From the NCBI GenBank assembly GCA_964607145.1, contig CAZSIX010000002.1, positions 139,989 to 203,988 of the forward strand: DNA of 64,000 nt. Direction: 5' to 3'. The translations under genes and the position numbers were made by a program. The DNA is from an uncultured Planctomycetota bacterium. GTDB lineage: Bacteria; Planctomycetota; JAJSAM01; JAKLKS01. Below the pieces are notes generated by a model. It did no database searches. It saw nothing but the letters and a program-made list of their open reading frames with translations, and was not told where the DNA came from. Below are positions 3,994 to 58,388 of the stretch, piece after piece (position 1 is the first letter of the stretch; each line of letters starts with the position of its first letter).

Positions 3994-3999
3994 TCCCCC

Positions 4000-15807: not shown

Positions 15808-16053
15808 ATGAGCGGCAAGAAGGGGTTCCTGGTGTTCGCGGCGGTGGCGGGTCTGCTCTCGGCGGGGGCGGTCGGGTGCGCCTCCAAGGGCGATCACCAC
15901 GGCGAGAAGAAGGACGACTCGAAGATGGAGAAGAACTCCTGCAAGGGCGGCGGCAAGTGCAAGGAGGGCGGGAAGTGCAAGTCCGGCGGACAGTGCAAGG
16001 AAGGCGGCAAGTGCAAGGCCGGCGGCGGCTGCGGCAAGAACTCCTGCGGCTAG
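15808..16053 (+). CDS. Small secreted/lipoprotein Cys-rich repeat peptide (GG[KQ]CK repeats); candidate RiPP precursor for the adjacent MNIO
   Basis: MSGKKGFLVFAAVAGLLSAGAVGCAS (signal peptide, lipobox) then KGDHHGEKKDDSKMEKNSCKGGGKCKEGGKCKSGGQCKEGGKCKAGGGCGKNSCG; GGAGG RBS 9 nt upstream of ATG 15808; located 57 nt before the DUF692 gene. Confidence 0.75.
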   Translation: MSGKKGFLVFAAVAGLLSAGAVGCASKGDHHGEKKDDSKMEKNSCKGGGKCKEGGKCKSGGQCKEGGKCKAGGGCGKNSCG

Positions 16054-16110
16054 ACGATCCCACGGCATGACCGGGACGCCGGGGGCCCCGCCTCCGGCGT
16101 CCCTCCCGCC

Positions 16111-16965: not shown

Positions 16966-17770
16966 GGAGGGGCGCGACGGGGCCCTCGACGGGCTGGAGC
17001 GCTGGGTGCGGGACGTCGTGACCGCGCCCGCGGACCCCGACGGCGCGGAGGCGGGGCGCGTCCTCGCCCCCCTCCCGGGCCTCCCCCCGGCGGAGCAGTT
17101 GCGGATCTACCGGGACGGCTGGTTCTCGCGGCTCCGCTCGGCGCTGGCGGAGGACTTCCCGGGCCTCGAGCACGCCCTCGGCCACCACGGGTTCGACCAC
17201 CTCTGCGCCGACTACCTGCGCGCCCACCCGTCCTCGTACACCGACATCTGCCGCGTGGGCGTGGACATGGAGCGGTTCGTGCGGTCCCGGACGGACCTCG
17301 CCGACGTCGGGTTCCTCGCCGACCTGGCGCGACTGGAGTGGTCCGTCACGTCGGTCTTCGACCGCGCCGACGGCCCGGTGCTGCGGGTCGCCGATCTCGA
17401 GGGGACGGACACGGAGACGCTCGCCGCCGCCCGCTTCCCCCTGGCGTCCACCACGGACCTCCTGGACCTGGGGTACCCGGTGCACGAGTACCTGGAGGCC
17501 GTCCTCGCCGAGGGGTCGCCGGCGGTTCCCGCGCCGCGGCCCTGCACCGTCGTCGTCTCCCGCGCCGGGACCGCCATGAGCCGGATGGAGGTCGCCGGCC
17601 CCCTCGTCCCCGTGCTGCGGGCGCTGGCGGAGGGCGCGTCGCTGGAGGAGGCGGTCGGCACCGCCGCGGAGTGCGCGGAGGACGACGCGGCGCTGGAAGC
17701 CCTGGCGGTGGCGATGCGGGACGGGTTCGCGCGCTGGGTCGGGGCGGGCGTGTTCGCGCCGACGGGGTAG
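16955..17770 (+). CDS. DUF2063 family protein (MbnC/BufC-like partner of the MNIO)
   Basis: 271 aa; overlaps the DUF692 gene by 11 nt; N-terminal region typical of DUF2063 (LQRWV-like, [19 protein letters not shown]). Confidence 0.8.
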
Positions 17771-21722: not shown

Positions 21723-23144
<1,422 letters not shown>

Positions 23145-23282
23145 GGGGGTCTCCGGGGTGGCGAGGGCGGGACGGCGCCCAAGGTACGGCGGCACGGGGC
23201 GGCGCCGGGCAAAGATGCCCGTCGGGAGCGGGACCCGCGTGACCGGGTCACGGCGGGGGCGCGGCGGGCCAGGTCCGGCCGA

Positions 23283-24950
23283 CTACGTCCGGTTCCAGTC
23301 GAAGACCGGGCGCTCCGGTTTGCCGTACATGGTCAGCGCGCCGCGCTCGCCCACCGCGTTGGGCCGCTGGAAGATCCAGTTCTGCCACGCGGAGAGGCGG
23401 CCGAAGACCTTGGTCTCCGGCGTCTCGCGTCCGGCGAACCGGAGGTTCGCCTCCAGCCCGGTGAGGGAGTCCGGCGACAGGCTCACGCGCTCCTCGCAGG
23501 CCACGCGGACCTCGTCCTCGAAGTCGATGTCGTCCAGCGCGAACGTGACGAGGCCGGCCTCCTCGGCGGCGACCGCGGCGAGGGGTTGCGTCGCCGCGCA
23601 GACCTCGTCCGCCCGCGCCGCGTCCGCGAGGAAGCGGCTCTGGAGGCGGGTGAGCCCGTTCCCCATGGGAAGGGGTCCCCCGTTCATCGCGGACACGGCG
23701 ACGGTGACGGCGCCGGCCTCGTCCTCCAGCATGTAGGAGCGATCCGCCGCCAGGGCGGGCTCCAGGAGCGAGCCCGCGAAGCACGAGCCCCCGTCGATGA
23801 CGGCGAAGAGGGACTTGGCGGTGAGGTCGAGGCGACGGAGCGTGCGCGCCCGGAAGGCGATCATCTCGTCCGCGAACCAGTGGGCCCGCGCGGCGAGGAG
23901 CGCGCGGTCCCACTCCAGGACGCGGGCGACGTCGCCCCGGGTCTTCAGCAGGACGAGCCCGATCTCCAGGTGGTTGACCCGGAGCCGGAGGAGCGCGTCG
24001 TCGAACTCCCGCCATGCGCGCAGCGCCCAGGTCTCCGACCCCGCGGCGAGCCACGCGGGCCCGTCCGCCGGCGGTGCGGCCGCGGGCCCCTCGATGGTGA
24101 GGGTGGCGCGGCGGCCGGGAGCGTCCAGTTCCAGCAGGACGTGCCGGTAGCGGATCGCCGACGGGGTGACCTCCGGCGAGAGCGGCTCCAGGGGGACGCC
24201 GGGCCCGCCCCGGGAGGGGCGCTCGGCGCGGCTCGCCGCCGCCAGGGCGGCGCTCCGCTCCGCCACCACGGCGTCGAACCGGCTCCGCGGCGCCAGGGCG
24301 TCCACGAGGCCCCAGTCCACCGCGCGCTGCCCCTTGATGCCCTCGGCCACGGTGCAGAACACGTCGGCGCGATCCCGCCGGACCTTCCGCTTGTCCACCA
24401 CGCGGGTGAGTCCGCCGGTGCCGGGGAGCACGCCCAGCAACGGGACCTCGGGGAGGCTCACGGCGCTGTTCCCGTCGTCCACGAGGACGATGTCGTCGCA
24501 GGCGAGGGCCAGTTCGTACCCGCCGCCGGCGCACGTCCCGTTGAGCGCCGCCAGCGAGCGGAGGCCGCTGCGCAGGCTCGCGTCCTCCAGCGCGAGGCGC
24601 GTCTCGTTGGTGAACTTGCAGAAGTTCACCTTGAAGGCGTGGCCCGACGTGGCGAGCATGTTGATGTTCGCGCCGGCGCAGAAGATGCGGTCCTTGGCGC
24701 TGGAGACGACGACGCAGCGCACGCCCGGGTGCTCGAAGCGCAGGCGCTGGATGGCGTCCGCCAGTTCGATGTCCACGCCGAGGTCGTAGGAGTTGAGCTT
24801 CAGCCGGTACCCCTCGCGCAGCGGCGCGTCCTCCCTCACGTCCATGGCGAGGCGGGCGATCTCGCCGTCCACCGTGAGCCGCCAGTGGCGGTACCGGGAG
24901 GGATGCGTCTCGAAGTCCACGGCGGGGGCGGGCGCGGCGGCGTCGTCCAT
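23283..24950 (-). CDS. boxC: Benzoyl-CoA-dihydrodiol lyase (enoyl-CoA hydratase/isomerase superfamily)
   Basis: 555 aa; crotonase-fold motifs (RCVVVSSAKDRIFCAGANI, ALNGTCAGGGYELALACD) and size typical of BoxC. Confidence 0.85.
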   Translation of the reverse strand: MDDAAAPAPAVDFETHPSRYRHWRLTVDGEIARLAMDVREDAPLREGYRLKLNSYDLGVDIELADAIQRLRFEHPGVRCVVVSSAKDRIFCAGANINMLATSGHAFKVNFCKFTNETRLALEDASLRSGLRSLAALNGTCAGGGYELALACDDIVLVDDGNSAVSLPEVPLLGVLPGTGGLTRVVDKRKVRRDRADVFCTVAEGIKGQRAVDWGLVDALAPRSRFDAVVAERSAALAAASRAERPSRGGPGVPLEPLSPEVTPSAIRYRHVLLELDAPGRRATLTIEGPAAAPPADGPAWLAAGSETWALRAWREFDDALLRLRVNHLEIGLVLLKTRGDVARVLEWDRALLAARAHWFADEMIAFRARTLRRLDLTAKSLFAVIDGGSCFAGSLLEPALAADRSYMLEDEAGAVTVAVSAMNGGPLPMGNGLTRLQSRFLADAARADEVCAATQPLAAVAAEEAGLVTFALDDIDFEDEVRVACEERVSLSPDSLTGLEANLRFAGRETPETKVFGRLSAWQNWIFQRPNAVGERGALTMYGKPERPVFDWNRT

Positions 24951-25025: not shown

Positions 25026-25976
25026 CTAGGCCAGCGCGGCGACCTTCGCCTCGTACTCGGCCTGGGAGATCTTCCCGGCCTTGAGGTCGGCGTTGAGCGC
25101 CTCGATCTTCGCCTTGTCGGCCTTCTTCTTCGCCTCGATGGCGGCCTTGTCCGACTCGTAGGCCTTCTTGCCCTCCGCCTCGGCGGACTTGAAGACCGAC
25201 TTCAGCGTGTCCATGTCGGCCTTGCCGCCGGAACCGAAGTAGTTGTCCGCCATCCGCCCGATGGCCCACGTGGCGGCGTAGGAGGTCACCGCTCCCACGG
25301 CGCTGCCCCAGCCGGGGACGAGCTTCACCACGTTGGTGACCGCGATGCGGGCCCCCGTGCCGACGCCCACGCCCAGCAGCAGGCTCTTGGCGGCTTCCTT
25401 CGTCACGTGGTGGCCGTGGTACTGGCCGATGTCCCGGATGAGCTTGATCTGGATGCCCACGACGGCGAGGTCCGTGGCGATGGCGACGCCGGGGATGGGG
25501 AAGGCGCCGAGGATGGCGCTGAAGATGGCGTACTTCCGCGTGTCCTCGGTGATCTCCTTCGCCCGCTGCGCGGCGTCGTGGATGGCGTGGATGTCGCTCG
25601 GCAGCACCGTGTCCTTCGCCTCGGAGAACACGCGGCCGAGGAGATTGGAGTGCTCGACGGGGATGCCCAGGCCGGAGCGGATGCGCTCCAGGAGCGCCTT
25701 CTCCTCGGGGGTGGCCTTTCCGTCGGCGTTCACCATCCCGTAGGCGGCGTTGTAGACCCCCTGCTTCGCGTCGGGGGTGGCCACGGACTTCAACTGGGCG
25801 TCCAGGTCGCCGGGGGCGTCGATGAGCGAGTTGATGGTCGTCCCGGCGGGCAGCTTCACTCCCTCGAGGGCGGCGGCGATGGCGGCGCGCTCCTCCGGGG
25901 CGATGGTCCCGTCGGCCTTCGCGACGTGGACGAGGATGCGGACCGTGGCGAGCGCCTCTTCCTGCGGGTTCGGCAT
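25026..25976 (-). CDS. TerB-like N-terminal domain plus a possibly membrane-associated C-terminal domain (DUF697-like guess)
   Basis: MPNPQEEALATVRILVHVAKADGTIAPEERAAIAAAL (TerB-like); middle hydrophobic FPIPGVAIATDLAVVGIQIKLI; Lys/Ala/Glu-rich tail. AGGAGG RBS. Confidence 0.7.
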   Translation of the reverse strand: MPNPQEEALATVRILVHVAKADGTIAPEERAAIAAALEGVKLPAGTTINSLIDAPGDLDAQLKSVATPDAKQGVYNAAYGMVNADGKATPEEKALLERIRSGLGIPVEHSNLLGRVFSEAKDTVLPSDIHAIHDAAQRAKEITEDTRKYAIFSAILGAFPIPGVAIATDLAVVGIQIKLIRDIGQYHGHHVTKEAAKSLLLGVGVGTGARIAVTNVVKLVPGWGSAVGAVTSYAATWAIGRMADNYFGSGGKADMDTLKSVFKSAEAEGKKAYESDKAAIEAKKKADKAKIEALNADLKAGKISQAEYEAKVAALA

Positions 25977-26252
25977 GGCTGACCTCCTTCGTGTGATCGG
26001 GTGTTCCCGGACCGCCCGGTGGCGGCCCCGGCCTCGCGCGCCCTTCCCGTGGGTCCCGCGCGGGGGGGACCAGCATACCCCGCGAGCCGCGGGAATCGAA
26101 CGGCACCGCGGCCCCCCAATCCGTCGCCCCCGGGTAAAGTGCAAGCGACTTGACCCCGGGCCGGTCACCCCGACCCCCATGCGGCACCTCCCGCACTCCT
26201 GTTCTCGGTTGACGGATCCTCCGAACCATCCCAGACTCGACCGGCGATCTCC

Positions 26253-28940
26253 ATGTGGATGAACAGCAAGGTTCCCGCCGGTGCGTTCCGACCCGAGGCG
26301 CTCCTCGTCCACCGCGAGTGGATCGAGCGAGCGGCTCGTGCACTGGTCCATGGAGAGACCGAAGCGGAAGATCTCAGCCAGCAGGCGTGGCTCAAGGTCC
26401 TCCAGCATCCCCCGCCCTCGACGCCGGAGCGTCCTCGAGGCTGGTTCCGTTCGGTGCTCCGATTCACGGCGCTCGACCGGGCGCGGGCCGAGCGACGCCG
26501 GCGCAGGCACGAGACGGCCGCCTCCAACCGGGAGGCGGTGGAATCCACCCCTGAGAGCGTCCTCGCTCGCGCCGAGTCCCTCGACAGGGTGGCCCATGCC
26601 GTCTTCGCGCTGGAGGAGCCCTACCGCACCGCGGTGCTCCTCAGGTACTTCGAGGGGCTCGACCCCCGGGCCATCGCGGCCCGTCAGGGAGTTCCGCTGG
26701 AGACCGTGAGGACGCGCCTCAAGCGCGCCCTCGCCCTGCTTCGGGAAGGCCTGGAAGAGAGGAGCGGGGGCGAACGGGGGGCCTGGGCGCTCGCGCTCGT
26801 GCCCCTCCTTCGGGAGGCACCGGCGACTTCGACCGCCACCGTCGCAGGACCCGGAGCCGCCCTGGCGGCGGGGGGAGTTCTCATGGGGAAGAAGACGGTT
26901 GCCCTGCTCTTGGTGGCGCTACTCGCTGGTGGGGCCTGGTGGGGCCTCCGGACAGTCGAGCCTCTCGAAGTCGGCTCGGCTCTCCCCGGGACCGGAGGTG
27001 GTCCCGTCCCGCAGGTCCCTTCCCTGCCGATCTCGGCTCCCCCCTCCCCGCCGCCGACCGCGCCCCCTCCCTCCCGTCCTGCCCCGGCGGCCACGGGGCA
27101 GGTGACGGATCGCGAAGGCCACCCCATCCCTGGAGCCCGCGTCCTCTCGTTCCCCGATGACCTCCCGGTCCCGCTCGATCCCGCCTCCGTCCGGGGGGAG
27201 CAGGGGCCGGGGCGAGTCTCGATGGCTGACGCCGATGGACGTTTCTCCGTGACCCTCGCAGGCACGTCCCCCCTCTTCTCCATCCGCGCGGAGGCCGAAG
27301 GCTACGGACCGACATGGGCGTCCGGCGTACGACCCGGAAGCGATGTGGCTCTCACGCTCGATGGACCCGGCACGATCGTCGGGAGCGTGACCGACACCCG
27401 GGGCGACCCCGTGCCCGGGGCCGTGGTCCGCGTCGCCACTCTCGTGGATCTCACCCGGACGGCCAGGGAGACCACGACCGGCGCCGACGGCGCCTACCGG
27501 CTGACCGGAGTGCCCACGGCCCCCGGACTCTACTCCCTCGAAGTCTCGGCCCCTGGCCTGGCGACGGCACTGAGGGTGCTTCCGGAGACTCCCCGACCGG
27601 GGGAAGAGATCCGCTACGACGTCATCCTGGCCCGCTGGTGTGTCCTGCGGGGCCGCGTGCTCGATGGCAGGACGAACGAGCCCGTTCCCGGGGCCCGGGT
27701 GGTCCTTTGCGCCACCGCATGCACGGGAGGCGGAGGCTGGACCTCGAGCACCGGGAGCGGGGGCCGCCGGACCGACAACCCCGACGCCTGGAAGGCGCTG
27801 GGAGAGGCGACGACGGGAGCCGGCGGCAGCTACCGCATCGACCGCCTTCTCCCCGGCGGCATGAACCCCTGGCTCTCCGTGTACGCAGGGGCCCTCAAGG
27901 ACGGTTGGACTACCCAGCTCCTCCAGGTGACCCTCACCAACGCAGGCGAGGAGGCGGAACTCGATCTCCGCCTCTGGCCCGCGGCGACGATCGAGGGGCG
28001 AGTGTTCGAAGGCGAGCAGCCCGCCTCCGGGGTCACCGTGAGTGCCTCCATTGCCGGGACCGAGACCGCCTCCTGGTTTCCCTCCATGTACGGTGAAGTT
28101 CCCCTCTGGTGGAGCACGACCGACGGGGAGGGCCGATACCGCCTCCAGGGAGTCCCCGTCCCCGGACAGGGACCTGCAACCGCCGAGGTGAGGGCCTACT
28201 CGCGGAGCATGATGTTCCAGGTGGGCGGGAAGGCGGAACCCGCGGCCCGGGCGGAGATCGAGGTCCTTGCAGCGAAGACGACTTCCGTCCCCGACCTCGT
28301 CATGCCCGCGTTCCGCCCCGCCGCGGTGGACGTCGTGGTGGTCGATCGGGAGGGCCGCCCCATCGGCGGGGCGGAGTTCGTTGCGCCGGGATGCCCCACC
28401 AACCCCCGGACCGACGCGTCGGGGCGGGCCCGGCTTCTCTGGCCACCCGGCGATTCCCCCTCGCCTGCTCGCCCTGTCATCGTCCGGGCCCGTGGTTTCG
28501 GCCCGGAGGCGGTAGCGGTAGTGCCCGACGAAGCGGACCCGCCAGTCGTCCGTGTCGTCCTCGGACGTGGCCACACGCTGAAGGGGAGAGTCCTCGGAGC
28601 CGGCCCTGAACACAACGACCGTGTCCTGGTCCAGGTCGCCAATGGCCACCTGGCTCCCGAGGAGGCCTTCCGCCGGGCGATGGAGAGCTCCGGCGGCACC
28701 GCCACGATCCCGTCCTTCCCGCCGCTACGGGTGTACGCCTCCCTCGCTCCGGACAAGGACGGCCGCTTCCGCGTCGAGGACCTCCCCGATGGTCCGTGGT
28801 ACCTGAGGGCGGTCGCCTACCTCCCGGAGGATCCTGCGGAAGGGCTCCCCTCCCGCACCCGCGAGTCGCCCCTCGTCACAGCAGGACCCGAATCCGGGGA
28901 GGTCGTCATCGAGATCCCAGCCGATCCCACGCCGAAGTAG
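26253..28940 (+). CDS. ECF sigma-70 factor fused in one ORF to a transmembrane segment and a large periplasmic carboxypeptidase-regulatory-like beta-sandwich region
   Basis: N-terminus: sigma-70 region 2/4 (EDLSQQAWLKVLQ..., LEEPYRTAVLLRYFEGLDPRAIAARQGVPLETVRTRLKRAL). Then TM helix KKTVALLLVALLAGGAWWGL. Then repeated DxxGxPIPGARV / TDGEGRYRL-type modules. No stop between the domains. Confidence 0.75.
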   Translation: MWMNSKVPAGAFRPEALLVHREWIERAARALVHGETEAEDLSQQAWLKVLQHPPPSTPERPRGWFRSVLRFTALDRARAERRRRRHETAASNREAVESTPESVLARAESLDRVAHAVFALEEPYRTAVLLRYFEGLDPRAIAARQGVPLETVRTRLKRALALLREGLEERSGGERGAWALALVPLLREAPATSTATVAGPGAALAAGGVLMGKKTVALLLVALLAGGAWWGLRTVEPLEVGSALPGTGGGPVPQVPSLPISAPPSPPPTAPPPSRPAPAATGQVTDREGHPIPGARVLSFPDDLPVPLDPASVRGEQGPGRVSMADADGRFSVTLAGTSPLFSIRAEAEGYGPTWASGVRPGSDVALTLDGPGTIVGSVTDTRGDPVPGAVVRVATLVDLTRTARETTTGADGAYRLTGVPTAPGLYSLEVSAPGLATALRVLPETPRPGEEIRYDVILARWCVLRGRVLDGRTNEPVPGARVVLCATACTGGGGWTSSTGSGGRRTDNPDAWKALGEATTGAGGSYRIDRLLPGGMNPWLSVYAGALKDGWTTQLLQVTLTNAGEEAELDLRLWPAATIEGRVFEGEQPASGVTVSASIAGTETASWFPSMYGEVPLWWSTTDGEGRYRLQGVPVPGQGPATAEVRAYSRSMMFQVGGKAEPAARAEIEVLAAKTTSVPDLVMPAFRPAAVDVVVVDREGRPIGGAEFVAPGCPTNPRTDASGRARLLWPPGDSPSPARPVIVRARGFGPEAVAVVPDEADPPVVRVVLGRGHTLKGRVLGAGPEHNDRVLVQVANGHLAPEEAFRRAMESSGGTATIPSFPPLRVYASLAPDKDGRFRVEDLPDGPWYLRAVAYLPEDPAEGLPSRTRESPLVTAGPESGEVVIEIPADPTPK

Positions 28941-49618: not shown

Positions 49619-50467
49619 ATGGCGAAGGGCAGGAAGGCGACGCCGTCCCGCTCGCGGTGGGACGTCCACCCGGCGGTCGGGATGGTGGGGAACTGGGTGC
49701 GCACGCTGAAGGAGAAGACCGGGCGCGACCTCGACGAGTGGGTGGCCCTCGTGGAGAAGGAGGGACCCGCCGGCGAGAAGGAGCGGCGCGACTGGCTGCG
49801 CAAGGAGCGGGGCCTCGCGATGAACTCGGCGTGGTGGATCGCGGAGAAGGCCTCCGGCGGCGGAACCTGGGACGAGGACCCGGACGCCTACCTGCGCAAC
49901 GCGGAACGCCACGCGACGGAACTGTTCTCGGGGGCCCGGGCCGGCTCTCGACCGCTGTTCGACGCGCTCGTGGAGCGGGGGCGGGCTCTCGGCGGGGACG
50001 TGAAGATCTGCCCATGCCAGACCATGGTGCCCTTCTACCGGAAGTTCGTGTTCGCCGAGGTCCGGCCCACCGCGGACGGCGTGGAACTGGGCCTGGCGCT
50101 GGGAAACCGGAAGCCCTCCGGCAGGCTCGAGCCGCTGGCGCGGATGGTGGGGAACCGGGTGCAGCACCGCGTCCTCCTCTCCTCGCTGGGGGACCTCGAC
50201 GCGGAAGTCGAGGGCTGGCTCCGGGAGGCGTACGAGCAGGGGGACCGCACGCAGGAGAAGAAGCTGGCGACGGCGGGCCCCCCGGCGGACCTCGAGGCGG
50301 CGCTCAAGCGGTCGAAGCCGGCGAAGGCGACCTGGGACTCCATGACGCCGCGCATGCAGTCCGACTGGATCCTCTTCATCGAGTCGGCGAAGAAGGCGGA
50401 GACCCGCGCGGCCCGCGTCGCTCGCGCGGAGGAGCGGCTGGCCGCGGGGAAGAAGACGACGTACTGA
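49619..50467 (+). CDS. DUF4287-like N-terminus / YdeI-OmdA-like C-terminal domain protein
   Basis: GGGAGGAGAGG RBS; C-terminus PAKATWDSMTPRMQSDWILFIESAKKAETRAARVARAEERLAAGKK typical of YdeI/OmpD-associated family. Confidence 0.7.
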   Translation: MAKGRKATPSRSRWDVHPAVGMVGNWVRTLKEKTGRDLDEWVALVEKEGPAGEKERRDWLRKERGLAMNSAWWIAEKASGGGTWDEDPDAYLRNAERHATELFSGARAGSRPLFDALVERGRALGGDVKICPCQTMVPFYRKFVFAEVRPTADGVELGLALGNRKPSGRLEPLARMVGNRVQHRVLLSSLGDLDAEVEGWLREAYEQGDRTQEKKLATAGPPADLEAALKRSKPAKATWDSMTPRMQSDWILFIESAKKAETRAARVARAEERLAAGKKTTY

Positions 50468-50475
50468 CCGGGCCG

Positions 50476-51621
50476 TCAACCGCGGCGGAGGATCTCCGCG
50501 GCGCGCACGAGGCTCTCCAGTTTGCGGCGCGCGCCGTCGGCGTCATTGACGGGCCTGTCGGCGAACGTCCCGAAGCCGCAGTCGGGGTTGAGCATCACGC
50601 GTCCGGGGCCGAGGATCTCCGCGGCGCGGCGGGCCCGCGCGGCCACCGCATGGGGGTCCTCGATCTCCTCCGTGCGCGGGTTGACGGCGCCGAGGCCGAG
50701 CATGGCCGCCGGCGGGAGCCCGGCGAGCACTTCCAGCGAGCCCGCGCGCGGTGTCGCGTACTCCAGCGCGAAGAAGCCCACGCGCATCCGGGCGAGCCAC
50801 GGGAGCAGCGGGTCGTAGTCGCCCTCCAGCAGCACCTCGTCCTTGCGGCTCCAGTTGCCGCGGCAGACGTGGATGCCGAAGCGGGTCCCCTGGATGCCCT
50901 CCACCACCCGGTTGAGAAGGTCCACGGCGAGGTCGAGTTCCCCCTCGGGACTGGCCTTGGCGGCCAGGGCGGCGCACATGAACGTGCGCGTGGCGGACTT
51001 CCCCGCGAACACGACCTCCGTAAGGACCGGCTCGTCGAACTGCACGAACTCCACGCCTTCCGCGGCCAGCGCCATGGCCTCCGCCCGGAGTAGGGCGACG
51101 ATGGCCTCGTTCAGCGCGGCCCGCGACGGGTAGGCCCCCTCGGACAGCCCCTTCACCCACGTGGATCGGGAGAGGAGGTAGGGGCCCGGCAGCGTCGCCT
51201 TGACGGGACGCTTCGTGTGGCGGCGGAGGAAGCGGACGTCGTCCAGGACGAGCGGGGCGCGGGCGCGGAGCGGGCCCGTCACGGTGGGGTTCTTGAGGGC
51301 GAACGCGGGCACGTCGAGGGCGGAGAGCATGGCCTCGAAGCCGGCCTTGTCCTCGACGAAGTCCAGGAGGTCCGCCATGGTCATCAGCCGGAGCCCCTCC
51401 ACCCGCTCGCACAGGAACGAGTAGAAGTTGTCCCGGCGCTGCTCGCCGTCGGTGACCACGTCGACGCCGGCGTCCTCCTGGTGGCGGAGGGAGAGCAGCA
51501 CCGCCTCGTCCCGCAGCGCCTCCAGATCGGGCGACCGGCGCCGCGTCGCCTCCAGCAGGGCCGGGGGGCGGGGCCAGGAGCCCACGGTCGTGACCGGGAA
51601 CGCGGGGAGCGGGTCGCTCAC
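50476..51621 (-). CDS. Short cobalamin-independent methionine-synthase-family (MetE C-terminal domain/UroD-like) methyltransferase
   Basis: GTG overlaps the upstream TGA (GTGA); VTTVGSWPRP..., zinc ligands GIHVCRGN and NPDCGFG; ~380 aa as in YxjG/YxjH-type proteins. Confidence 0.8.
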   Translation of the reverse strand: MSDPLPAFPVTTVGSWPRPPALLEATRRRSPDLEALRDEAVLLSLRHQEDAGVDVVTDGEQRRDNFYSFLCERVEGLRLMTMADLLDFVEDKAGFEAMLSALDVPAFALKNPTVTGPLRARAPLVLDDVRFLRRHTKRPVKATLPGPYLLSRSTWVKGLSEGAYPSRAALNEAIVALLRAEAMALAAEGVEFVQFDEPVLTEVVFAGKSATRTFMCAALAAKASPEGELDLAVDLLNRVVEGIQGTRFGIHVCRGNWSRKDEVLLEGDYDPLLPWLARMRVGFFALEYATPRAGSLEVLAGLPPAAMLGLGAVNPRTEEIEDPHAVAARARRAAEILGPGRVMLNPDCGFGTFADRPVNDADGARRKLESLVRAAEILRRG

Positions 51622-52364
51622 GGAACCTTCATCCCGATGCGGACCGCGGTCCCGTCCATCAGCGTCCGCGCCACGGGGGAGCGGCGCACCGTCTCCTCCC
51701 ACAGGGCGCGCAGCGCGTCCTCGTCCCCGTCGGCGTCCACCCACGCGGTCCCCTCGATGGCCTCCAGGGCCGGGGTTCCCTCGTCCTCCACCGCGAGGAA
51801 CACGAGCAGGTTCGACGACTTCGCCCGCAGGGACACCTCCACGTTCCGCACGGCGATGCCGCGCCGGGAGGCGCGCCACTGGAATCCGACGGCGAGGCAG
51901 CCTCCCAGGGACGCCAGCAGCAGTTCCACGGCGCTGGGAGCGGGGTCGGCGGTGTCCAGGGACGCCGGCTGGCCCACGGGGACGGCGTGGTTGCGCGCGA
52001 ACGCCCGCCCCTCCATGCCGCCGGTCCACCGGGTCCGGACGGACCAGGAGAACCCGCGCGCCGTCGCCAGGTCGGCGTCCAGCGACTCGTCCCTCGCCCC
52101 CGCCTTCCGCAGGAACCAGGACGTGCTGCCGCCGTCCCCGGGGCGCACCGCGTCGATCCCGTGCCCGACCATGCGGCACCAGGCGGGAAGATCCTCGCGC
52201 ACGCTCACTTCGCGGCTCCGGACCTCCAGCACGCCGCGGGGCGGGACGCGCCGCATGGCGTCCCGGATGATCAGAAGGAGTCCGCTGCCGCAGTCGAGGT
52301 CCCCGCCGTCGCAGACTCCGTCCGCGGCGGGTGCCGGGACGGCATCGGTTCCGCCGTCGGCCAT
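51618..52364 (-). CDS. TusA-like sulfurtransferase domain fused to an OsmC-like domain
   Basis: N-terminus DGGDLDCGSGLLLIIRDAMRRVPPRGVLEV (TusA-like); C-terminus ELLLASLGGCLAVGF...(OsmC/Ohr-like). Confidence 0.7.
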   Translation of the reverse strand: MADGGTDAVPAPAADGVCDGGDLDCGSGLLLIIRDAMRRVPPRGVLEVRSREVSVREDLPAWCRMVGHGIDAVRPGDGGSTSWFLRKAGARDESLDADLATARGFSWSVRTRWTGGMEGRAFARNHAVPVGQPASLDTADPAPSAVELLLASLGGCLAVGFQWRASRRGIAVRNVEVSLRAKSSNLLVFLAVEDEGTPALEAIEGTAWVDADGDEDALRALWEETVRRSPVARTLMDGTAVRIGMKVP

Positions 52365-52368
52365 TTCG

Positions 52369-52731
52369 CTAGTACGTCACGCAGGGCGATCCGCCGGAGA
52401 GGAACTCCACCAGTTTCGCGCCGCCCACGATGGCGGCCCCGTCCACCAGGCGGGCCTCGTCGAGCCCCCGCTTCTTGAAGCAGGGGGAGCAGACGAGGAT
52501 CTTCCCGCCGGCGCCGTGGAAGGACTTCATGAGGTCGCGCAGCGCGGCGAACCCCTCCTCGTGGACGTCGTCCGCGTAGCCCTTCTGGCACAGGCGCACG
52601 CCCTCGGTGCTGAGGAACACGATGGTCTCCTTCTCCGAGGCGGCGGCGGCGTTGGCGATGACGAAGGCGACCGTGGCGCGGTCCGTGTTGTCCTTCGCGC
52701 AGGTGAGGCTCACGCAGAATCGTCCGGCCAT
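52369..52731 (-). CDS. DsrE/DsrF-family sulfur-relay protein
   Basis: 120 aa; FVIANAA...ILVCSPCFKKRGL pattern of the DsrE/YchN family with conserved Cys. Confidence 0.75.
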   Translation of the reverse strand: MAGRFCVSLTCAKDNTDRATVAFVIANAAAASEKETIVFLSTEGVRLCQKGYADDVHEEGFAALRDLMKSFHGAGGKILVCSPCFKKRGLDEARLVDGAAIVGGAKLVEFLSGGSPCVTY

Positions 52732-52734
52732 GGG

Positions 52735-52989
52735 TCAATCCTCCTTCCGACGGATCCTGTAGACGGGGTGCCGCTCGTCGACGAGGGCGTGCCCCGTGAG
52801 CCCGCACCACGCGGGGATGTCCAGCACGGCGCCGGGGTCCGTCGCCGTCACGACGAGGACGTCACCGGGTCGCATCTCCGCGAGCCTCCCGCGGAGCGCC
52901 ATGACCAGATCGCCGCAGCCCAGGTCCCCGGCGTCGTAGGGAACCTCGGTGGACGCGGCCGGTCCGGCGGGGGTCTTCGCGGGGCTCAC
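52735..52989 (-). CDS. TusA-family sulfurtransferase-like small protein
   Basis: 84 aa; YDAGDLGCGDLVMALRGRLAEMRPGDVLVV (TusA fold, Cys in the CPxP position). Confidence 0.75.
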   Translation of the reverse strand: MSPAKTPAGPAASTEVPYDAGDLGCGDLVMALRGRLAEMRPGDVLVVTATDPGAVLDIPAWCGLTGHALVDERHPVYRIRRKED

Positions 52990-52999
52990 CCCGACGATG

Positions 53000-54112
53000 C
53001 TACCGCACCTCGCGGAAGGTGAGCGTGCGCGTCCAGGCGGAGCCCGGCAGTTCCTTCCCGTCGACCTCGATGTAGGCCTTCGGGTTGGCGTTCACGGGAC
53101 CGACCGCCTGCCCCGGAGGGATGACGAGGTCGCGGCCCCGGTTCCAGACGACCCGGCGCTCGTCCAGGTTGCCGAAGTAGTAGTCGACCATGGCGGGATC
53201 GCCCTTCGTGTAGCCCGCGGCGGTGGTCAGGCGGACCTTCTCGGCGTTCCCGTCGTTCAGCGTGAAGTCGCCCACGAAGATGTCGGCGATGGCGACGTCG
53301 TGGGGCACCCAGCCGAGGCCCGGGGCCCAGAACTCGGGCCAGCAGTGGTAGGACTGGTCCTTCTCCTTGCCGTCCAGTTCCGCCTTGAAGAACGAGCCGT
53401 AGACCATCCGCGTGGGGATGCCCTTCGCCCGCGCCATGGCCGTCCACAGCGAGTGGAAGTCGGTGCAGTTCCCGGTCCTGGACGTGAGGCAGTACTCCGA
53501 GGACCCCACGGGCGAGGCCTTCTTGTTGGCGGGGTCCTTGACCCAGTAGTCGACGTTCCCGAGGACCCAGTCGTAGATGCGCCGCGCCGCCTTCGCGGGG
53601 TTGGTCTCCGTGCCCACCGCCTCGTCCGCCACCTTCCGGACGGCGGCGTCCATCTTCACGTGGGCGTTCTCGCCGAGGTAGGCCGCCATGGTGGCCCGCT
53701 CCGCGTCCGTGAGGGGACGCGTGGCGGCGGGATCCACGCTCCGCCTCACCTCGCGACGCACGATCCGGAACCGCTCCACGACCTTGAAGGGCTTGACGTC
53801 GGCCCCCGCGAGTTCCACGTAGAGGTGGGAGTTCCCGAACTGGTCCATCACGACGCGGACCTCCCCGGGAACATCCGCCGTCAGGTCGCGAACGACCTGA
53901 TCGGGGTCGTCCTGGGGGAGCGCGAACCACGCGCGGACCGACTTCGCGCCCTCGGGCACCTTCACGTCGAAGGCGTGCGTGGCGTCGAACGTGGCGGTCT
54001 TCACGCCGGCGGCCCACGCGGCGGATCCCGGCTCGGGACCGGAGGGGCCCGCGCTGGCGCACCCGGCGACCGTCAGCGCGACAACGAGGGTTGCGGCGGG
54101 GACGCGGATCAT
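53000..54112 (-). CDS. Transglutaminase-like cysteine-protease lipoprotein
   Basis: MIRVPAATLVVALTVAGCASAG; core GNCTDFHSLWTAMARAKGIPTRMVYG...YHCWPEFW (Cys-His-Asp transglutaminase core); AGGAGG RBS. Confidence 0.85.
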   Translation of the reverse strand: MIRVPAATLVVALTVAGCASAGPSGPEPGSAAWAAGVKTATFDATHAFDVKVPEGAKSVRAWFALPQDDPDQVVRDLTADVPGEVRVVMDQFGNSHLYVELAGADVKPFKVVERFRIVRREVRRSVDPAATRPLTDAERATMAAYLGENAHVKMDAAVRKVADEAVGTETNPAKAARRIYDWVLGNVDYWVKDPANKKASPVGSSEYCLTSRTGNCTDFHSLWTAMARAKGIPTRMVYGSFFKAELDGKEKDQSYHCWPEFWAPGLGWVPHDVAIADIFVGDFTLNDGNAEKVRLTTAAGYTKGDPAMVDYYFGNLDERRVVWNRGRDLVIPPGQAVGPVNANPKAYIEVDGKELPGSAWTRTLTFREVR

Positions 54113-54222
54113 GGTCGACCTCCTGCGGGCGGGGCGAGGGACGGGGGAAAGGCGCGGGCCCCGCGGCGGAGACTCCGTCGGAGGAGGTTGCCTGCGGGGC
54201 CCGGCATACAGGGCTTGTGGGG

Positions 54223-55626
54223 CTAGAACTTGTAGGCGATGTAGGCCTGGACGCGGTTGTCCCGGCCGTTGCGCTGCGCGACCCAGTCCGTGAACCAGTA
54301 CATGTAGTCGATGCCGATCTCGACGGGGTCCAGGTTCAGGCGCGCACCGACGTAGTGGACGAGGTTGCGGCCGCGGCCGCCGGCGCCCACGTCCCCGTTG
54401 TCCACGTCGTCCTGGCTGCGCCCCACGTGGAGGGACCACGTGTCGGAGACCTTCCACCCCGCCTCCACCCACCCGCCCATGGTGTGGATCTCGTCCCCGG
54501 TGACGGTGTTGATGCCCTGGAAGATGCCGCCGCGGACGTCGTCCAGGTTCCGGCCGCAGAACCACTCCCCCTTGAAGGAGAAGGCGGATCCGATGGGCAC
54601 CATCCAGTCGAAGCCGACGGCGACGGAGTCGAAGTCATCGGTGGTCGCGATCTTCACGTCCGTGTGCTCCCACGCCCGGTGACCCCAGAGGCCGATCTCG
54701 GCGCTGTTCTTGCCGCCCATGGGGAACTTGAGCGCGGTGCGTGCCTGGAGGGTGGGCCGCGCGGAGGCCTCGCCGTCCCGGTATCCGTTCGCGTCGAGGT
54801 TCTGGTTGTCGTCGGCGCCGGTGAGGCCCGCCATGAAGCCCATCTTCACCTTCACGTCGCCGCCGAACTCGGCCTCCACCCGCGCCTGCGGGCGCCGATC
54901 GCCCAGGTTCCCCGCGCCCCACATCACGAGATCGGGGTTGGCGCTGGGGAAGAGGGGGGAGATCAGGTCCGCCGCCTGGCCGGCCAGGAGGGAGGCTCCA
55001 CCCCAGTCGAGCTTCACGTACGCGTGTCGCATGCGCAGGGCCGCGCGCGACTCGGACTGGCCCGTGAGGCCGCTGTTGTAGAAGTCGACCTCCATCTTGC
55101 CCGTGACCTTCGCGTCGTTCACCGCGGCGACCCGGCCCGCGTCGATGTCCACGCCGAACCGCGTGAGGCGGGGGTGGATGGTGAGCGACGTGGCGTTCTT
55201 CTTCGCCCCCGCGGGGGCCGTGGGGTCCTCGGAGCGGACCCAGCCCACGGTCTGCGTGTTGCTCGCACGCGAGTCGTCCCAGATGGCGTCGAGGCGGAGG
55301 AAGCCGTAGAACTTGAGCGTCGAGGAGCCCTTCACCGTCAGGTCCCGCGCCCGCAGGTAGCGGTCGAGTTCGCTGGCGATGGCGGAGTCCGCCGCCGGCG
55401 CGGCGCCGGAGCCCGATCGCGCCGCCCGGAGGTCCCCTTCGAGTTCGCGGATCCGCGCGTCCTGCTCGGCCATCCTGGCGCGCATCTCCTCCTGCGCCTT
55501 GCGGAGGGCCTCCAGTTCGCTGCGCGTGGCGGCTCCGTCCTCGACGGCGAAGGCCGGTCCCGCCGCCGCCAGCACCGCCATCACCGCCAACCCGCTCAGC
55601 CATCGCCGCGTCGTCGTCGAGGTCAT
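54223..55626 (-). CDS. Outer-membrane porin with N-terminal coiled coil (DcaP-like)
   Basis: Signal peptide; coiled coil ELEALRKAQEEMRARMAEQDARIRELEGDL; beta-barrel-like alternating pattern; C-terminal ...AYIAYKF. GGAGGA RBS; AT-rich upstream region. Confidence 0.7.
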   Translation of the reverse strand: MTSTTTRRWLSGLAVMAVLAAAGPAFAVEDGAATRSELEALRKAQEEMRARMAEQDARIRELEGDLRAARSGSGAAPAADSAIASELDRYLRARDLTVKGSSTLKFYGFLRLDAIWDDSRASNTQTVGWVRSEDPTAPAGAKKNATSLTIHPRLTRFGVDIDAGRVAAVNDAKVTGKMEVDFYNSGLTGQSESRAALRMRHAYVKLDWGGASLLAGQAADLISPLFPSANPDLVMWGAGNLGDRRPQARVEAEFGGDVKVKMGFMAGLTGADDNQNLDANGYRDGEASARPTLQARTALKFPMGGKNSAEIGLWGHRAWEHTDVKIATTDDFDSVAVGFDWMVPIGSAFSFKGEWFCGRNLDDVRGGIFQGINTVTGDEIHTMGGWVEAGWKVSDTWSLHVGRSQDDVDNGDVGAGGRGRNLVHYVGARLNLDPVEIGIDYMYWFTDWVAQRNGRDNRVQAYIAYKF

Positions 55627-55791
55627 GCCTGGATCCTCCGGTACCTGGGTTCCCCGCGGGAACGGCCGGGAAGCATTATCTGCTTGCCTTATCACTAAGA
55701 TGGAAAGAATCTCTGACAATCCCCCGCGCCGGGCTCCGACGGTCCGCACCGGGGTCCCGGCTACAATCCGACTTCGTTACGGAGGGGTGCC

Positions 55792-57552
55792 ATGCGAAGC
55801 GTCGCCATCGCCGCGGCCGCGCTGCTGTTGGGGGTGGCGGGACCGGCCCTGGCGGAGGGACTCGTGGAGACGAGCCCCGTCTCGGACCCCGCCGTCGGCT
55901 ACTCCATCCGGCCCCTCCGCGGTTGGGAGCCCCTGCCCCGCAAGAACCCCGGCGATCCCACCGCCGGGAGCGAGGTCGGCGGCTGGTACGGGAAGAAGGA
56001 GTGGCAGGGTTGCCGGCTGGAGATCCTCGCCTTCGGCTCGTTCTTCGACGAGGGGCGGGAGCGGGTGGACACCGTCGCCCCGACGCCGCCCCCCGGCGGC
56101 GATGAGGGGGGATCCGGCGAGGGGGAAGGCCCCCCGGAACCTCCGGCGGGGGGCGAGGAGGGCGGCGACGGCGGCGGCGAGGGCGACGGCGCCGGCGGAG
56201 GGCCGACCCCTCCCGGCGACGGGAGCGCCCCCGGGAAGCCGAAGGCCGGGCCGGCGACGGTGGAGGAACTGTTCGGTCCGCCGCCCGCCTCCTTCGAGGA
56301 GTGGCGCACGCGGGTGGCCGACCTCTACAAGCGCAATCGCATGCGCTTCGACCTGCAGGAGGTCAAGCGCCTCAAGTTCGGGAGCGACGAGGGGGTGCTC
56401 TGGGAGGGGCTGGCGAGCGTCTCGCCGGGCAGGAGCGATGTCGTGGCGCTGGCGGCGGCCAGCATCCGTCGGCGCAACTTCGAGGTCGTCGCCATCCTCT
56501 CCACGACGGACTCCCAGCCGCCCCGGGGCAACGGCAATCCGTTCGTGGTCTGCCTCCGATCGCTGCGCATCCTCTCCGACAGCGAGATGGAGCGCGCCCG
56601 CGATGCGCTGGCGAAGCGCACGACGGGGCTCGACGACGAGGGCGCCTGGGCGGAGCGGGTGAAGCGCAGCCTCCCCAAGGGGTGGAAGTACCGCGAGACG
56701 GCGAACTACATCATCGTCTACGACAAGTCCATCGACGCGGAGCCGCCCAAGGGGAACCCGAACCTGGTCCCGCGCATCCAGCGGCAGCTGGAGGGCATCC
56801 GGAAGAACGTGTACGAGGTCCTCTTCCCGCCGGACCGTCCCATCACGGTCAAGTCCGTGGTGAAGATCACGCAGGACCCCGAGCAGTACCGCGCCTACAA
56901 CGCCCCCGCGGGATCCGCCGGTTACTGGTCATGGCCCTCGCGGGAACTGGTGTTCTTCTACAGCGCATCCGACAACGACCTCACGCTGGACGTGCTCAAC
57001 CACGAGGCGTTCCACCAGTACATCTTCTACTCCGTCGGGCAGGTGGCGCCCCACTCGTGGTTCAACGAGGGGCACGGCGACTACTTCGCCGGCTTCACCG
57101 CGAAGGAGGGGAAGTTCCTCGAAGGGAAGTTCGATCGGCGTCACGACAAGATGAAGGCCGCCGTGGACGGGCGCATGTGGGTGCCGCTGGACAAGTTCCT
57201 GAAGTACTCCCAGGCCGAGTACTACCGCCGGGGAGGCAAGCCGAAGGAGGGCGGGGACGTACTCCAGAACTACGCCCAGGGCTGGTCCATCGTCTACTTC
57301 CTCCGCACGACGAAGGACCCGAAGTACGCGGGTGTCCTGGAGCGCTACTTCAACGCGCTCAAGGCCGAGGTCACCGCCTGGCGCAAGCAGGTGGAGGAGG
57401 AGGCGGCGAAGTCCGGCCTGCCGCCCCGCCGGGGGCTCCTCGTGCCCGAGGAGGTCAACGAGGCGGCCCGGGGCAAGGCCCTCGAGGCCGCGTTCAGCGG
57501 GATCGACCTCTCCGTCCTCGAGAAGGACTGGATCGACTCGAAGCCCTACTGA
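55792..57552 (+). CDS. Secreted protein with HExxH motif (putative zinc metallopeptidase, DUF1570-like) and Gly/Glu/Pro-rich linker
   Basis: Signal peptide MRSVAIAAAALLLGVAGPALA; low-complexity GGDEGGSGEGEGPPEPPAGGEEGGDGGGEGDG; LNHEAFHQYIF (HExxH). Confidence 0.7.
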   Translation: MRSVAIAAAALLLGVAGPALAEGLVETSPVSDPAVGYSIRPLRGWEPLPRKNPGDPTAGSEVGGWYGKKEWQGCRLEILAFGSFFDEGRERVDTVAPTPPPGGDEGGSGEGEGPPEPPAGGEEGGDGGGEGDGAGGGPTPPGDGSAPGKPKAGPATVEELFGPPPASFEEWRTRVADLYKRNRMRFDLQEVKRLKFGSDEGVLWEGLASVSPGRSDVVALAAASIRRRNFEVVAILSTTDSQPPRGNGNPFVVCLRSLRILSDSEMERARDALAKRTTGLDDEGAWAERVKRSLPKGWKYRETANYIIVYDKSIDAEPPKGNPNLVPRIQRQLEGIRKNVYEVLFPPDRPITVKSVVKITQDPEQYRAYNAPAGSAGYWSWPSRELVFFYSASDNDLTLDVLNHEAFHQYIFYSVGQVAPHSWFNEGHGDYFAGFTAKEGKFLEGKFDRRHDKMKAAVDGRMWVPLDKFLKYSQAEYYRRGGKPKEGGDVLQNYAQGWSIVYFLRTTKDPKYAGVLERYFNALKAEVTAWRKQVEEEAAKSGLPPRRGLLVPEEVNEAARGKALEAAFSGIDLSVLEKDWIDSKPY

Positions 57553-57974: not shown

Positions 57975-58388
57975 ATGGCGGAAGCGGGCGTGGTGACGGT
58001 GCGGACCACGGCGGGCGAGGGGTACGCCTGCCGCGTGGATGCCGGGGGGCACGGGCTGCGTGCCGACGAGCCCGCGGCGGCGGGGGGGACGGACTCGGGG
58101 CCCACCCCCTCGGCTCTTCTGCTCTCGGCGCTGGGGGCCTGCACGGCCATCACCCTGCGGATGTACGCGGGGAGGAAGGGCTGGCCGCTGGAGGACGTCG
58201 AGGTGCGGCTCTCGCGCACGCCGGGCACCCCGGGCGACGGGGACGGCCGCGACCGCATCCACCGGTCGGTGCGGGTCACGGGATCCCTGGACGCGGAGCA
58301 GAGGGCCCGCCTCCTGGACATCGCCGGCAAGTGCCCCGTCCACCGCATGCTCACCGGCGGCATGGTGGTCGAGACCGTGGCGGGGTAG
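57975..58388 (+). CDS. OsmC/Ohr-family peroxiredoxin-like protein
   Basis: GGAGGAGG RBS; ...SALLLSALGACTAITLRMYA...LDIAGKCPVHRML (both conserved Cys). Confidence 0.85.
   Translation: MAEAGVVTVRTTAGEGYACRVDAGGHGLRADEPAAAGGTDSGPTPSALLLSALGACTAITLRMYAGRKGWPLEDVEVRLSRTPGTPGDGDGRDRIHRSVRVTGSLDAEQRARLLDIAGKCPVHRMLTGGMVVETVAG

Follow-up and report, generated by a model that had tools for sequence, protein, structure and literature searches.

This study examined a stretch of 64,000 nucleotides (nt) from an uncultured Planctomycetota bacterium (contig CAZSIX010000002.1, positions 139,989 to 203,988 of the forward strand; G+C about 74%), which is hereafter called the window, by which the whole of that stretch is meant. 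Four closely packed genes on its minus strand were found to form a conserved cassette, encoding a TusA-like carrier, a DsrE-like protein, a TusA-OsmC fusion and a short zinc enzyme of the MetE family. Our preferred reading, to which we give slightly less than an even chance, is that a chalcogen relay is coupled here to methionine-synthase-type chemistry at a zinc and homocysteine site, and that a porin and a transglutaminase-like lipoprotein encoded upstream belong to the same module. The features of the cassette are given below by window coordinates, with the Pfam scores and cut-offs in bits.

50476-51621, minus strand: short MetE-family zinc enzyme, 381 aa, GTG start; Pfam Meth_synt_2 73.3 bits (cut-off 21)
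50578-50871, minus strand: span of the zinc-ligand codons of the MetE-like gene (His251 50869-50871, Cys253 50863-50865, Glu287 50761-50763, Cys348 50578-50580)
50974-50976, minus strand: Cys216 codon (TGC) of the MetE-like gene
51618-52364, minus strand: TusA-OsmC fusion, 248 aa; Pfam OsmC 50.6 bits (cut-off 27.5), TusA 19.2 bits (below the cut-off of 28.6)
52369-52731, minus strand: DsrE-like protein, 120 aa; Pfam DsrE 55.3 bits (cut-off 22.7)
52735-52989, minus strand: TusA-like carrier, 84 aa, GTG start; Pfam TusA 43.4 bits (cut-off 28.6)

The four-gene cassette and its conservation

The original prediction, made from the letters of the sequence, had placed four packed genes on the minus strand at these positions, and the open reading frames (ORFs) were confirmed there with intergenic spacings of 3 nt, 4 nt and -4 nt, the last being a GTG/TGA overlap in the form GTGA. 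The NCBI gene calls P0001 (248 aa) and P0121 (381 aa) agree with the TusA-OsmC and MetE-like ORFs, and the TusA gene contains, at its 3' end, a strong ribosome-binding site for DsrE (AAGGAGG). The domain names given in that prediction were likewise borne out by Pfam, as TusA, DsrE, OsmC and Meth_synt_2 all score above their cut-offs; the TusA domain of the fusion is sub-threshold, but it is backed by its fold and by the homologues, most of which carry PF01206.

Gene order was determined by running tblastn with the four window proteins on the best 80 loci, and neighbour-gene counts come from 81 loci. In 67 of the 80, distributed over about ten phyla, the cassette is intact, its genes adjoining one another without any change of order or strand; the remaining 13 are either interrupted by contig ends or have one gene moved by 1-4 kb. 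The hosts include Planctomycetota (among them the anammox genus Brocadia), Acidobacteriota, Methylomirabilota/NC10, Nitrospinota, Verrucomicrobiota, Dormibacterota, Actinomycetota, Myxococcota, Poribacteria and Entotheonellaceae, as well as the cultured Bacillaceae Neobacillus novalis and Niallia oryzisoli. Searches begun from homologues of the MetE-like protein recover the same four-gene cassette. Such an arrangement is far beyond chance, and the four genes are a conserved unit in relatives of the window, contrary to the outcome that would have refuted the original prediction. The view that they are chance neighbours, or loosely related stress genes with independent functions, retains practically no likelihood and may be taken as already refuted, considering the shared order and strand across so many phyla, the overlapping or abutting start and stop codons, and the domain fusions that tie TusA to OsmC and, in a sister family described below, to the MetE-like domain.

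The TusA-OsmC fusion had also been called unusual, and this did not stand. Its homologues fall into more than 1,262 clusters at 90% identity (E ≤1e-3), with 59-72% identity among the best 120, and a count over one genome per species gave at least 549 loci; the fusion is thus not rare, though it is uncharacterised. An exact-match search of contigs for the fusion protein of the window itself found no record.

The MetE-like enzyme

The MetE-like protein consists of a single catalytic barrel, without the N-terminal folate-binding barrel (Meth_synt_1). Its best scores against the NCBIfam methionine-synthase models were 144 (PRK04326), 109, 75 and 39 bits, where the respective cut-offs are 406, 392, 258 and 399 bits, and the MetE equivalog models, whose cut-offs are 541-930, gave 51-57 bits. 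Among solved structures, 3RPD, which is MesD, comes nearest, with a sequence E-value of 3e-24, Foldseek template modelling (TM) scores of 0.75/0.83 and 25% identity, and the next structural matches are the C-terminal barrels of MetE. The AlphaFold model reached a predicted local distance difference test score (pLDDT) of 85.9.

Identity with canonical MetE and membership of the core methionine synthase families MesA-D were both rejected, in view of the NCBIfam scores and of the 25% identity to MesD. The MesA-D families are less than 30% identical to one another (Price et al., PMC7857596), and the literature up to 2026 cites no core methionine synthases besides these four. Neither a corrinoid protein nor the DUF1852 protein MesX, the partners of those families, is among the 25 most frequent Pfam/NCBIfam families beside the cassette. 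The MetE-like protein represents a distinct and very widespread family with thousands of members, always encoded together with a three-part cysteine relay, and MesD is its closest relative.

The four zinc ligands, His251, Cys253, Glu287 and Cys348, are invariant in the family alignment and kept in distant homologues. The same is true of Ser15, Glu60 and Asp196, which align with Ser22, Glu73 and Asp188 of 3RPD, the residues that hold the amino-acid end of the ligand in MesD (Price et al. 2021, PMC7857596). With the zinc ligands and the Ser/Glu/Asp triad invariant, the site for a homocysteine-like substrate therefore looks intact, and the earlier statement that the chemistry differs from homocysteine methylation went too far.

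An intact site of this kind also suits a simpler reading, in which the MetE-like protein would be a fifth core methionine synthase family that makes methionine from homocysteine, and TusA, DsrE and TusA-OsmC, carrying no chalcogen cargo, would be activators or else thiol-disulfide helpers through which the zinc thiolates and Cys216 stay reduced. We regard this as unlikely, though by no means negligible. It draws on the zinc and homocysteine residues and on the kinship with MesD, which also has a dedicated partner (PMC7857596); moreover, the CxxC of DsrE and the cysteine pairs look like redox motifs, and thiol-redox genes recur nearby. However, an Rfam scan of eight loci, three of them from Bacillaceae, found no riboswitch or leader match at the gathering thresholds ahead of the cassette, either in the Bacillaceae or in the five other loci, so that a tie to methionine through an S-adenosylmethionine (SAM) riboswitch or a T-box could not be shown. 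Further points against a fifth core synthase arise from the sister family and the neighbouring genes, and are taken up there.

Cys216 and the predicted selenocysteine forms

After the strand that carries Asp196, the MetE-like family has about 21 extra residues containing an invariant FMC motif (Cys216), a segment that is absent from MesD. At the position of Cys216, 74 of 77 loci have Cys and three have an in-frame TGA (L043, L067 and L071), beyond which the frame remains highly similar; a pattern scan of metagenome contigs yielded three more TGA forms, in L091, in L092 and, as part of a full cassette, in L089. Four of the contigs cover the region downstream, and there the alignment runs on past the TGA to residue 364-380. 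All six TGA forms have the 14-mer AGCCCGGAGGGCGA, which makes a hairpin GCCC-GGA-GGGC at a distance of 25 nt downstream of the UGA. Synonymous sites elsewhere are variable, and only 2 of the 18 Cys forms with the same encoded peptide (SPEGE) use this 14-mer. The hairpin would fit a constraint of the selenocysteine insertion sequence (SECIS) type, bearing in mind that the six sequences are related to one another.

Among representatives at 50% identity, the Cys216 loop is present in the window protein and in two of its three closest homologues (54%, and 43% for P0248), and Cys216 is absent from the 48%-identity homologue and from all the more distant MetE-like representatives. Residues 208-220, situated directly after the strand 192-196, form the sole long stretch of low confidence in the AlphaFold model (pLDDT <50), a sign that this loop, on the catalytic face of the barrel, is mobile.

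An exchange between selenocysteine (Sec) and Cys is a classic marker of a catalytic residue, usually one that is redox-active or chalcogen-transferring. Cys/Sec216 is probably an extra catalytic residue, one that the described methionine synthases do not have. In DsrE, Cys84 is replaced by an in-frame TGA in L032 (2385-2387), giving CSP-U, a single instance with no clear hairpin. The presence of Sec forms of two cassette proteins, MetE-like and DsrE, points to selenium use by the hosts. DsrE-like (UxxC) and OsmC-like families appear in a 2026 review of selenoproteins in prokaryotes, which has no methionine-synthase-like one; the MetE-like protein is a candidate new selenoprotein family, of which the window copy is a Cys form.

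The mobile-loop Cys216 could present a persulfide to the zinc in another reading of the cassette, which follows the original prediction. Here the relay would bring a persulfide or perselenide to the zinc for S- or Se-methylation, and the product would be methanethiol, methyl persulfide or methylselenol, for instance in detoxification or volatilisation. MetE-family enzymes alkylate zinc-bound thiolates, and persulfide carriers are coupled to such an enzyme in the cassette. Nevertheless, the invariant Ser/Glu/Asp triad would be needless for a protein persulfide substrate, no methyl-donor module is present, and a porin together with a binding-protein-dependent ATP-binding cassette (ABC) importer, as found beside some cassettes, fits acquisition better than detoxification. 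All in all, we hold this reading to be improbable.

Two side observations concern selenoproteins. A GTPase of the CobW/COG0523 type is encoded upstream of a selenocysteine-form cassette in L067 (3720-5090, minus strand); this GTPase family includes zinc chaperones. In two of the 80 cassette loci, a neighbouring gene belongs to another selenoprotein family, NF040546 (best E 8e-189), the radical SAM (seleno)proteins with a CUAEP/CCAEP tail.

The carrier proteins

Of 64 homologues of the 84-aa TusA, all have Cys25 and 62 have Cys62. The active-site motif is DxGxxGCGDL (C-G-D-L) in TusA and C-G-S-G in the fusion, and CPxP occurs in neither. By alignment to 3lvj, Cys25 of both TusA-type domains occupies the position of the active-site cysteine (E. 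coli Cys19). At least 39 of the 80 loci encode a first TusA with an extra N-terminal Cys-rich domain of about 110 aa (CxxC...C.H...CxxC...ECF; examples are L008 6954-7598, L022, L043 and L061), which gave no match in Pfam or NCBIfam and is absent from the window TusA.

The DsrE-like protein displays the motif CSPC (CxxC), with Cys81 present in all 77 homologues and Cys84 in 76, the remaining one having TGA. Its score against the NCBIfam DsrE2 model was 19.3 bits (cut-off 210), and none of the cassette proteins matched a YedF model at E <0.01.

The fusion comprises a TusA fold (residues 16-86), a linker helix and an OsmC fold (residues 106-246). In its AlphaFold model (pLDDT 77), residues 16-86 match E. 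coli TusA 3lvj_C with a TM score of 0.84 and a root-mean-square deviation of 2.3 A, and the OsmC half finds OsmC structures in Foldseek at E ~2e-6. Every locus keeps Cys25 and Cys63, and 74 of the 80 also have Cys18. The OsmC pocket never has both canonical cysteines: C156/S229 is found in 54 loci, including the window, A156/C229 in 17, and D/E156 with S229 in 9. As both catalytic cysteines never occur together, the OsmC half is not a canonical OsmC/Ohr peroxidase; a peroxidase reading was rejected on this ground and because the OsmC domain is missing in the sister family.

The TusA::MetE sister family

Some representatives from the MetE-like searches carry an N-terminal extension that is TusA by Pfam, together with the same FMC loop. 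The fused TusA is of the same subtype as that of TusA-OsmC (DGGxLDCGxGLLL...DLPAWCR), and this fusion family is large in Isosphaeraceae and Pirellulaceae, including the cultured Aquisphaera giovannonii. In A. giovannonii CP042997.1 (L096 7380-9569), and likewise in L097 and L098, the order is TusA, DsrE and then a TusA::MetE-like protein of 513-525 aa, and these sister operons are without OsmC, transglutaminase or porin genes.

The fusions suggest that the TusA domain of TusA-OsmC is the direct partner of the MetE-like enzyme, and the absence of OsmC from the sister family indicates that the OsmC domain is an optional add-on. They also give the strongest support to the earlier proposal that the cysteine carriers are functionally tied to the MetE-like enzyme, a tie that we consider probable. 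For a fifth core methionine synthase, three helpers, one of them fused to the enzyme in the sister family, would be a heavy cost for redox upkeep alone.

Besides these, one TusA::MetE-like protein, P0296 (503 aa), is possibly a pseudoenzyme: where the others read HVCRGNW and NPDCGFA it reads ALCLGPSL and TTDAGFA, so that the zinc ligands are gone, and the FMC cysteine is missing as well.

Neighbouring genes and selenium

Upstream of the cassette, the window contains the following features.

53000-54112, minus strand: transglutaminase-like (Cys-His-Asp) lipoprotein, 370 aa; Pfam Transglut_core 89.7 bits; lipobox LTVAGC
54223-55626, minus strand: DcaP-like porin of the outer membrane (signal peptide, coiled coil at the N-terminus); Pfam DcaP 31.1 bits (cut-off 27)
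55792-57552, plus strand: exported protein, 586 aa, weak DUF1570 match, divergent from the operon
57975-58388, plus strand: stand-alone two-cysteine OsmC, 137 aa; Pfam OsmC 70.1 bits

The stop codon of the transglutaminase-like gene lies 10 nt before the TusA start, and the porin gene stands further upstream on the same strand. The operon probably starts upstream of TusA, at these two genes, with the porin gene as the likely first gene in the window; the porin start at 55626 was placed there because the resulting N-terminus, MTSTTTRRW, is signal-peptide-like. A convergent gene for a DUF5655/OmdA protein lies downstream of the MetE-like gene. When 50000-56200 was scanned for promoters and terminators, nothing exceeded the shuffled background.

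Transglutaminase-like orthologues adjoin the cassette in 45 of the 81 loci, with about 45-60% identity and two outlying paralogues at 36-39%, and every copy whose N-terminus lies inside the contig has a signal peptide or a lipobox. The porin family is found upstream on the same strand in 22 of the 81 loci, and its counterpart in L089 belongs to the phosphate-selective porin O/P family. Since these porins come from anion-selective families (DcaP-like in the window, OprO/P-like in L089), they would suit the uptake of oxyanions. In one clade (L005 and L081-L086), the cassette and the transglutaminase-like gene lie inside a PhnCDE-like ABC importer operon that has a glutaredoxin gene first, and the binding protein of this operon matches TIGR04553, a putative selenate ABC substrate-binding family, with 337 bits against a cut-off of 250. 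In two Neobacillus genomes, a divergent LysR regulator beside the cassette belongs to the selenium metabolism-associated LysR family (302 bits, cut-off 250), a subfamily whose reported occurrence is limited to organisms with SelD (PMC5322559). For the OsmC domain, the top-scoring NCBIfam model is "OsmC-related (seleno)protein", and the selenium-associated YedF architecture joins TusA (SirA-like) to a CxxC DsrE-like domain (Lin et al. 2015, PMC5322559).

The names of the families hint at sulfur, but four independent leads favour selenium: the LysR regulator, the TIGR04553 binding protein, the YedF-like architecture, and the Sec forms together with the OsmC match. Considered together, Cys216 with its Sec forms, the CxxC of DsrE, the transglutaminase and porin genes and the selenium-type neighbours, none of which the original prediction had mentioned, make selenium as plausible a cargo as sulfur. 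This opens a reading in terms of selenium acquisition and trafficking, in which selenite or selenate would enter through the porin or the ABC importer, be reduced, be held by the Cys pairs as selenotrisulfide or perselenide and be passed on towards selenophosphate, and in its selenium-specific form the MetE-like enzyme would act on a seleno-amino acid or a methylated selenium species. We place its likelihood anywhere from low up to about even. It is favoured by the regulator in the two Neobacillus genomes and the TIGR04553 binding protein, both above cut-off, by the YedF-like pairing of TusA with a CxxC DsrE, by the Sec forms of two cassette proteins and by the anion-selective porins. Nonetheless, the selenium neighbours are limited to two lineages, SelD, SelA, SelB and YedE are not among the 25 most frequent NCBIfam families of 132 flanking genes, and the cassette proteins match no YedF/YedE model. 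In addition, Sec in an enzyme marks a reactive residue and not a selenium substrate, and we know of no role of the methionine-synthase fold in selenium delivery.

The same neighbourhood bears on the fifth core methionine synthase, and here it is unfavourable, as the Neobacillus regulator is a selenium-associated LysR and not a methionine regulator, and the exported protein, the porin and the ABC importer suggest the uptake of a substrate. Among the flanking genes analysed with Pfam (n=38) and NCBIfam (n=132), no family occurs in more than two genes, and MetX/MetY and the corrinoid protein are not regular neighbours.

Thiol-redox genes recur nearby in the form of glutaredoxin, Redoxin and stand-alone OsmC. 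The stand-alone OsmC of the window lies about 2.3 kb from the operon start on the opposite strand, the divergent pair of DUF1570-like and OsmC genes is also seen in L094, and in Neobacillus novalis a stand-alone OsmC follows directly after the cassette (L073 9903-10355). It is a possible accessory of the module, though its membership is uncertain.

Two individual loci deserve mention. In L095, a RACo-like reductive activator of corrinoid proteins is encoded upstream on the opposite strand (1-1408, minus), an extra DsrE-like gene (5371-5883, plus) separates the fusion from the MetE-like gene, which is followed directly by a Redoxin/AhpC-TSA gene (7168-7794, plus). In L081, the regions 2-2576 and 3296-4105, upstream of the ABC-embedded cassette, encode a rhodanese, an Rrf2 regulator, an (R)-SAM hydrolase-like protein, a transporter of the YeeE/YedE type and a small TusA; for the last two, the highest scores come from the selenium models YedE/FdhT and YedF, but they remain below both the selenium and the thiosulfate cut-offs. 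Orthology of the cassette proteins or of these nearby proteins with YedF/YedE is not supported by the scores.

Proposed mechanism

Under our preferred reading of a chalcogen relay joined to methionine-synthase-type chemistry, a sulfur or selenium atom would travel through the cytoplasm as a persulfide, perselenide or selenotrisulfide, from TusA to the CxxC DsrE and on to the TusA domain of TusA-OsmC, and this domain would dock on the MesD-like enzyme. The enzyme would bind zinc and the amino-acid end of homocysteine, and Cys216, or Sec in some relatives, would form a covalent link with the chalcogen from its mobile loop. The catalytic step may then combine an alkyl (methyl) transfer to the zinc-bound thiolate at the homocysteine site with an exchange of sulfur or selenium between Cys216 and the relay. 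Such a hand-off resembles, by analogy, the loop cysteine of a cysteine desulfurase that gives sulfur to TusA. The scheme builds on what the analysis established, namely the domain identities, the conserved unit, the invariance of the relay cysteines, of the zinc and homocysteine residues and of Cys216, the Sec/Cys exchange, the place of Cys216 on a mobile loop, the TusA::MetE fusions and the selenium-associated neighbours. In this scheme the identity of the cargo (S or Se), the order and direction of transfer, homocysteine as substrate and methionine or its seleno-analogue as product are what we infer from the cassette, while the porin and the transglutaminase-like protein suggest the uptake of an external substrate.

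Several observations weigh against this scheme. The TusA motif is CG and not the canonical CPxP, and cysteine desulfurase, rhodanese and SelD are not regular neighbours (38 flanking genes with Pfam and 132 with NCBIfam). The confinement of selenium-associated neighbours to two lineages counts here as well, and the labels "putative selenate" and "selenium-associated", although curated, were themselves assigned by computation. Furthermore, neither the relay model nor its rivals account for the roles of the exported transglutaminase-like protein and of the porin, beyond the hint of uptake.

A more specific version would make the enzyme a chalcogen-mobilising methionine synthase. In this version, a mixed dichalcogenide of the form CH3-X-S(e)-enzyme would be made at Cys/Sec216, the zinc-activated homocysteine thiolate would take the methyl group to give methionine, and the residual persulfide or perselenide would be carried off by TusA, DsrE and TusA-OsmC. 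Methanethiol, dimethyl disulfide, methylselenol, dimethyl diselenide and methaneseleninate are candidate methyl species, and the persulfide or perselenide left at residue 216 would then be assimilated, for example towards selenophosphate synthesis. We consider this version a long shot.

Some further functions were considered for the cassette. Homocysteine synthesis without pyridoxal 5'-phosphate (PLP), from activated homoserine and a persulfide, was judged chemically unlikely without that cofactor, and methionine sulfoxide reduction and S-sulfo-amino-acid reduction were dropped, there being no evidence that bears on either.

Implications

The module sits between two open questions, namely the methyl source of the core methionine synthases and the safe traffic of selenium to selenophosphate synthetase. 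If the MetE-like enzyme makes methionine, what genomes are taken to say about the need for methionine and B12 in Planctomycetota, Acidobacteriota, NC10 and other groups will have to be revised, and if it moves selenium or sulfane sulfur, it would be a new type of chalcogen-mobilising enzyme. The chalcogen-mobilising methionine synthase, should it be true, would mean a folate- and B12-independent synthesis of methionine that also salvages sulfur or selenium and a non-PLP counterpart of cysteine desulfurase or selenocysteine lyase; it would also give the MetE superfamily its first selenoprotein. The MetE-like family is abundant in soil, peat, groundwater, sponge and anammox communities, and the question is directly testable in cultured carriers, as Neobacillus novalis and Niallia oryzisoli have the cassette and Aquisphaera giovannonii the sister operon.

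Other features of the window

Away from the operon, the region 15730-17770 (plus strand) encodes a 107-aa ORF with a signal peptide and no Pfam match, then an enzyme of the MbnB/TglH/ChrH family (369.5 bits) and a DUF2063 protein, a layout that resembles a bufferin or methanobactin-type cluster of ribosomally synthesized and post-translationally modified peptides; a TonB-dependent receptor is encoded near it at 19422-21590 (minus). The regions 21723-24950 and 25026-26597, both on the minus strand, contain genes for a di-iron PaaA/BoxB-like protein (26.6 bits, just under the cut-off) and a 555-aa protein of the enoyl-CoA hydratase family, which suggests an aerobic benzoyl-CoA-type pathway, and a gene for a TerB-domain protein adjoins them.

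Comparison with known systems

In full-text literature searches, neither the cassette nor a TusA-OsmC protein nor a selenoprotein of the MetE-like kind was found described. Each fold by itself is known, and it is their combination, the extra Cys/Sec loop and the fusions that are not described in the literature searched.

The closest parallel for the enzyme is MesD with its partner MesX (PMC7857596; 3RPD). Both enzymes are single barrels without the folate half that keep the zinc ligands and the homocysteine Ser/Glu/Asp residues; MesD, too, depends on a partner of its own that is encoded with it, and the source of its methyl group is still not known. They differ in the partners, which are TusA, DsrE and TusA-OsmC here and DUF1852 for MesD, and in the loop of about 21 residues with Cys/Sec216, which MesD lacks. 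MesD is confined to aerobes, whereas the cassette hosts include strict anaerobes such as Brocadia.

For the carriers, the comparison is with the TusA-DsrE(FH)/DsrE3 relays of tRNA thiolation, Dsr and sHdr, in which small proteins pass sulfur species to a terminal enzyme (PMC11094781, PMC4175335). The co-encoded TusA and DsrE folds and the invariant cysteines are shared. The terminal enzyme, however, is a zinc enzyme of the MetE family and not DsrAB, sHdr or MnmA, and the cassette has CG for CPxP in TusA, a CxxC pair in DsrE and no regular rhodanese or desulfurase. YedF/YedE (PMC5322559) offers a likeness on the selenium side, with TusA and a CxxC DsrE, a selenium-type LysR and selenium-related transport; in contrast, TusA and DsrE of the cassette are separate proteins that match no YedF model, and the MetE-like and OsmC parts are added. 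The C-terminal half of the fusion shares its fold with the OsmC/Ohr thiol peroxidases, but it carries a single thiol that switches between sites, or Asp/Glu in 9 of the 80 loci. Finally, the proposed logic is akin to that of IscS-TusA (3LVJ), where the loop Cys of an enzyme swaps a sulfane atom with the Cys of TusA, although the enzyme is a PLP-dependent cysteine desulfurase in that case and would be a zinc-containing triosephosphate isomerase (TIM) barrel in this one.

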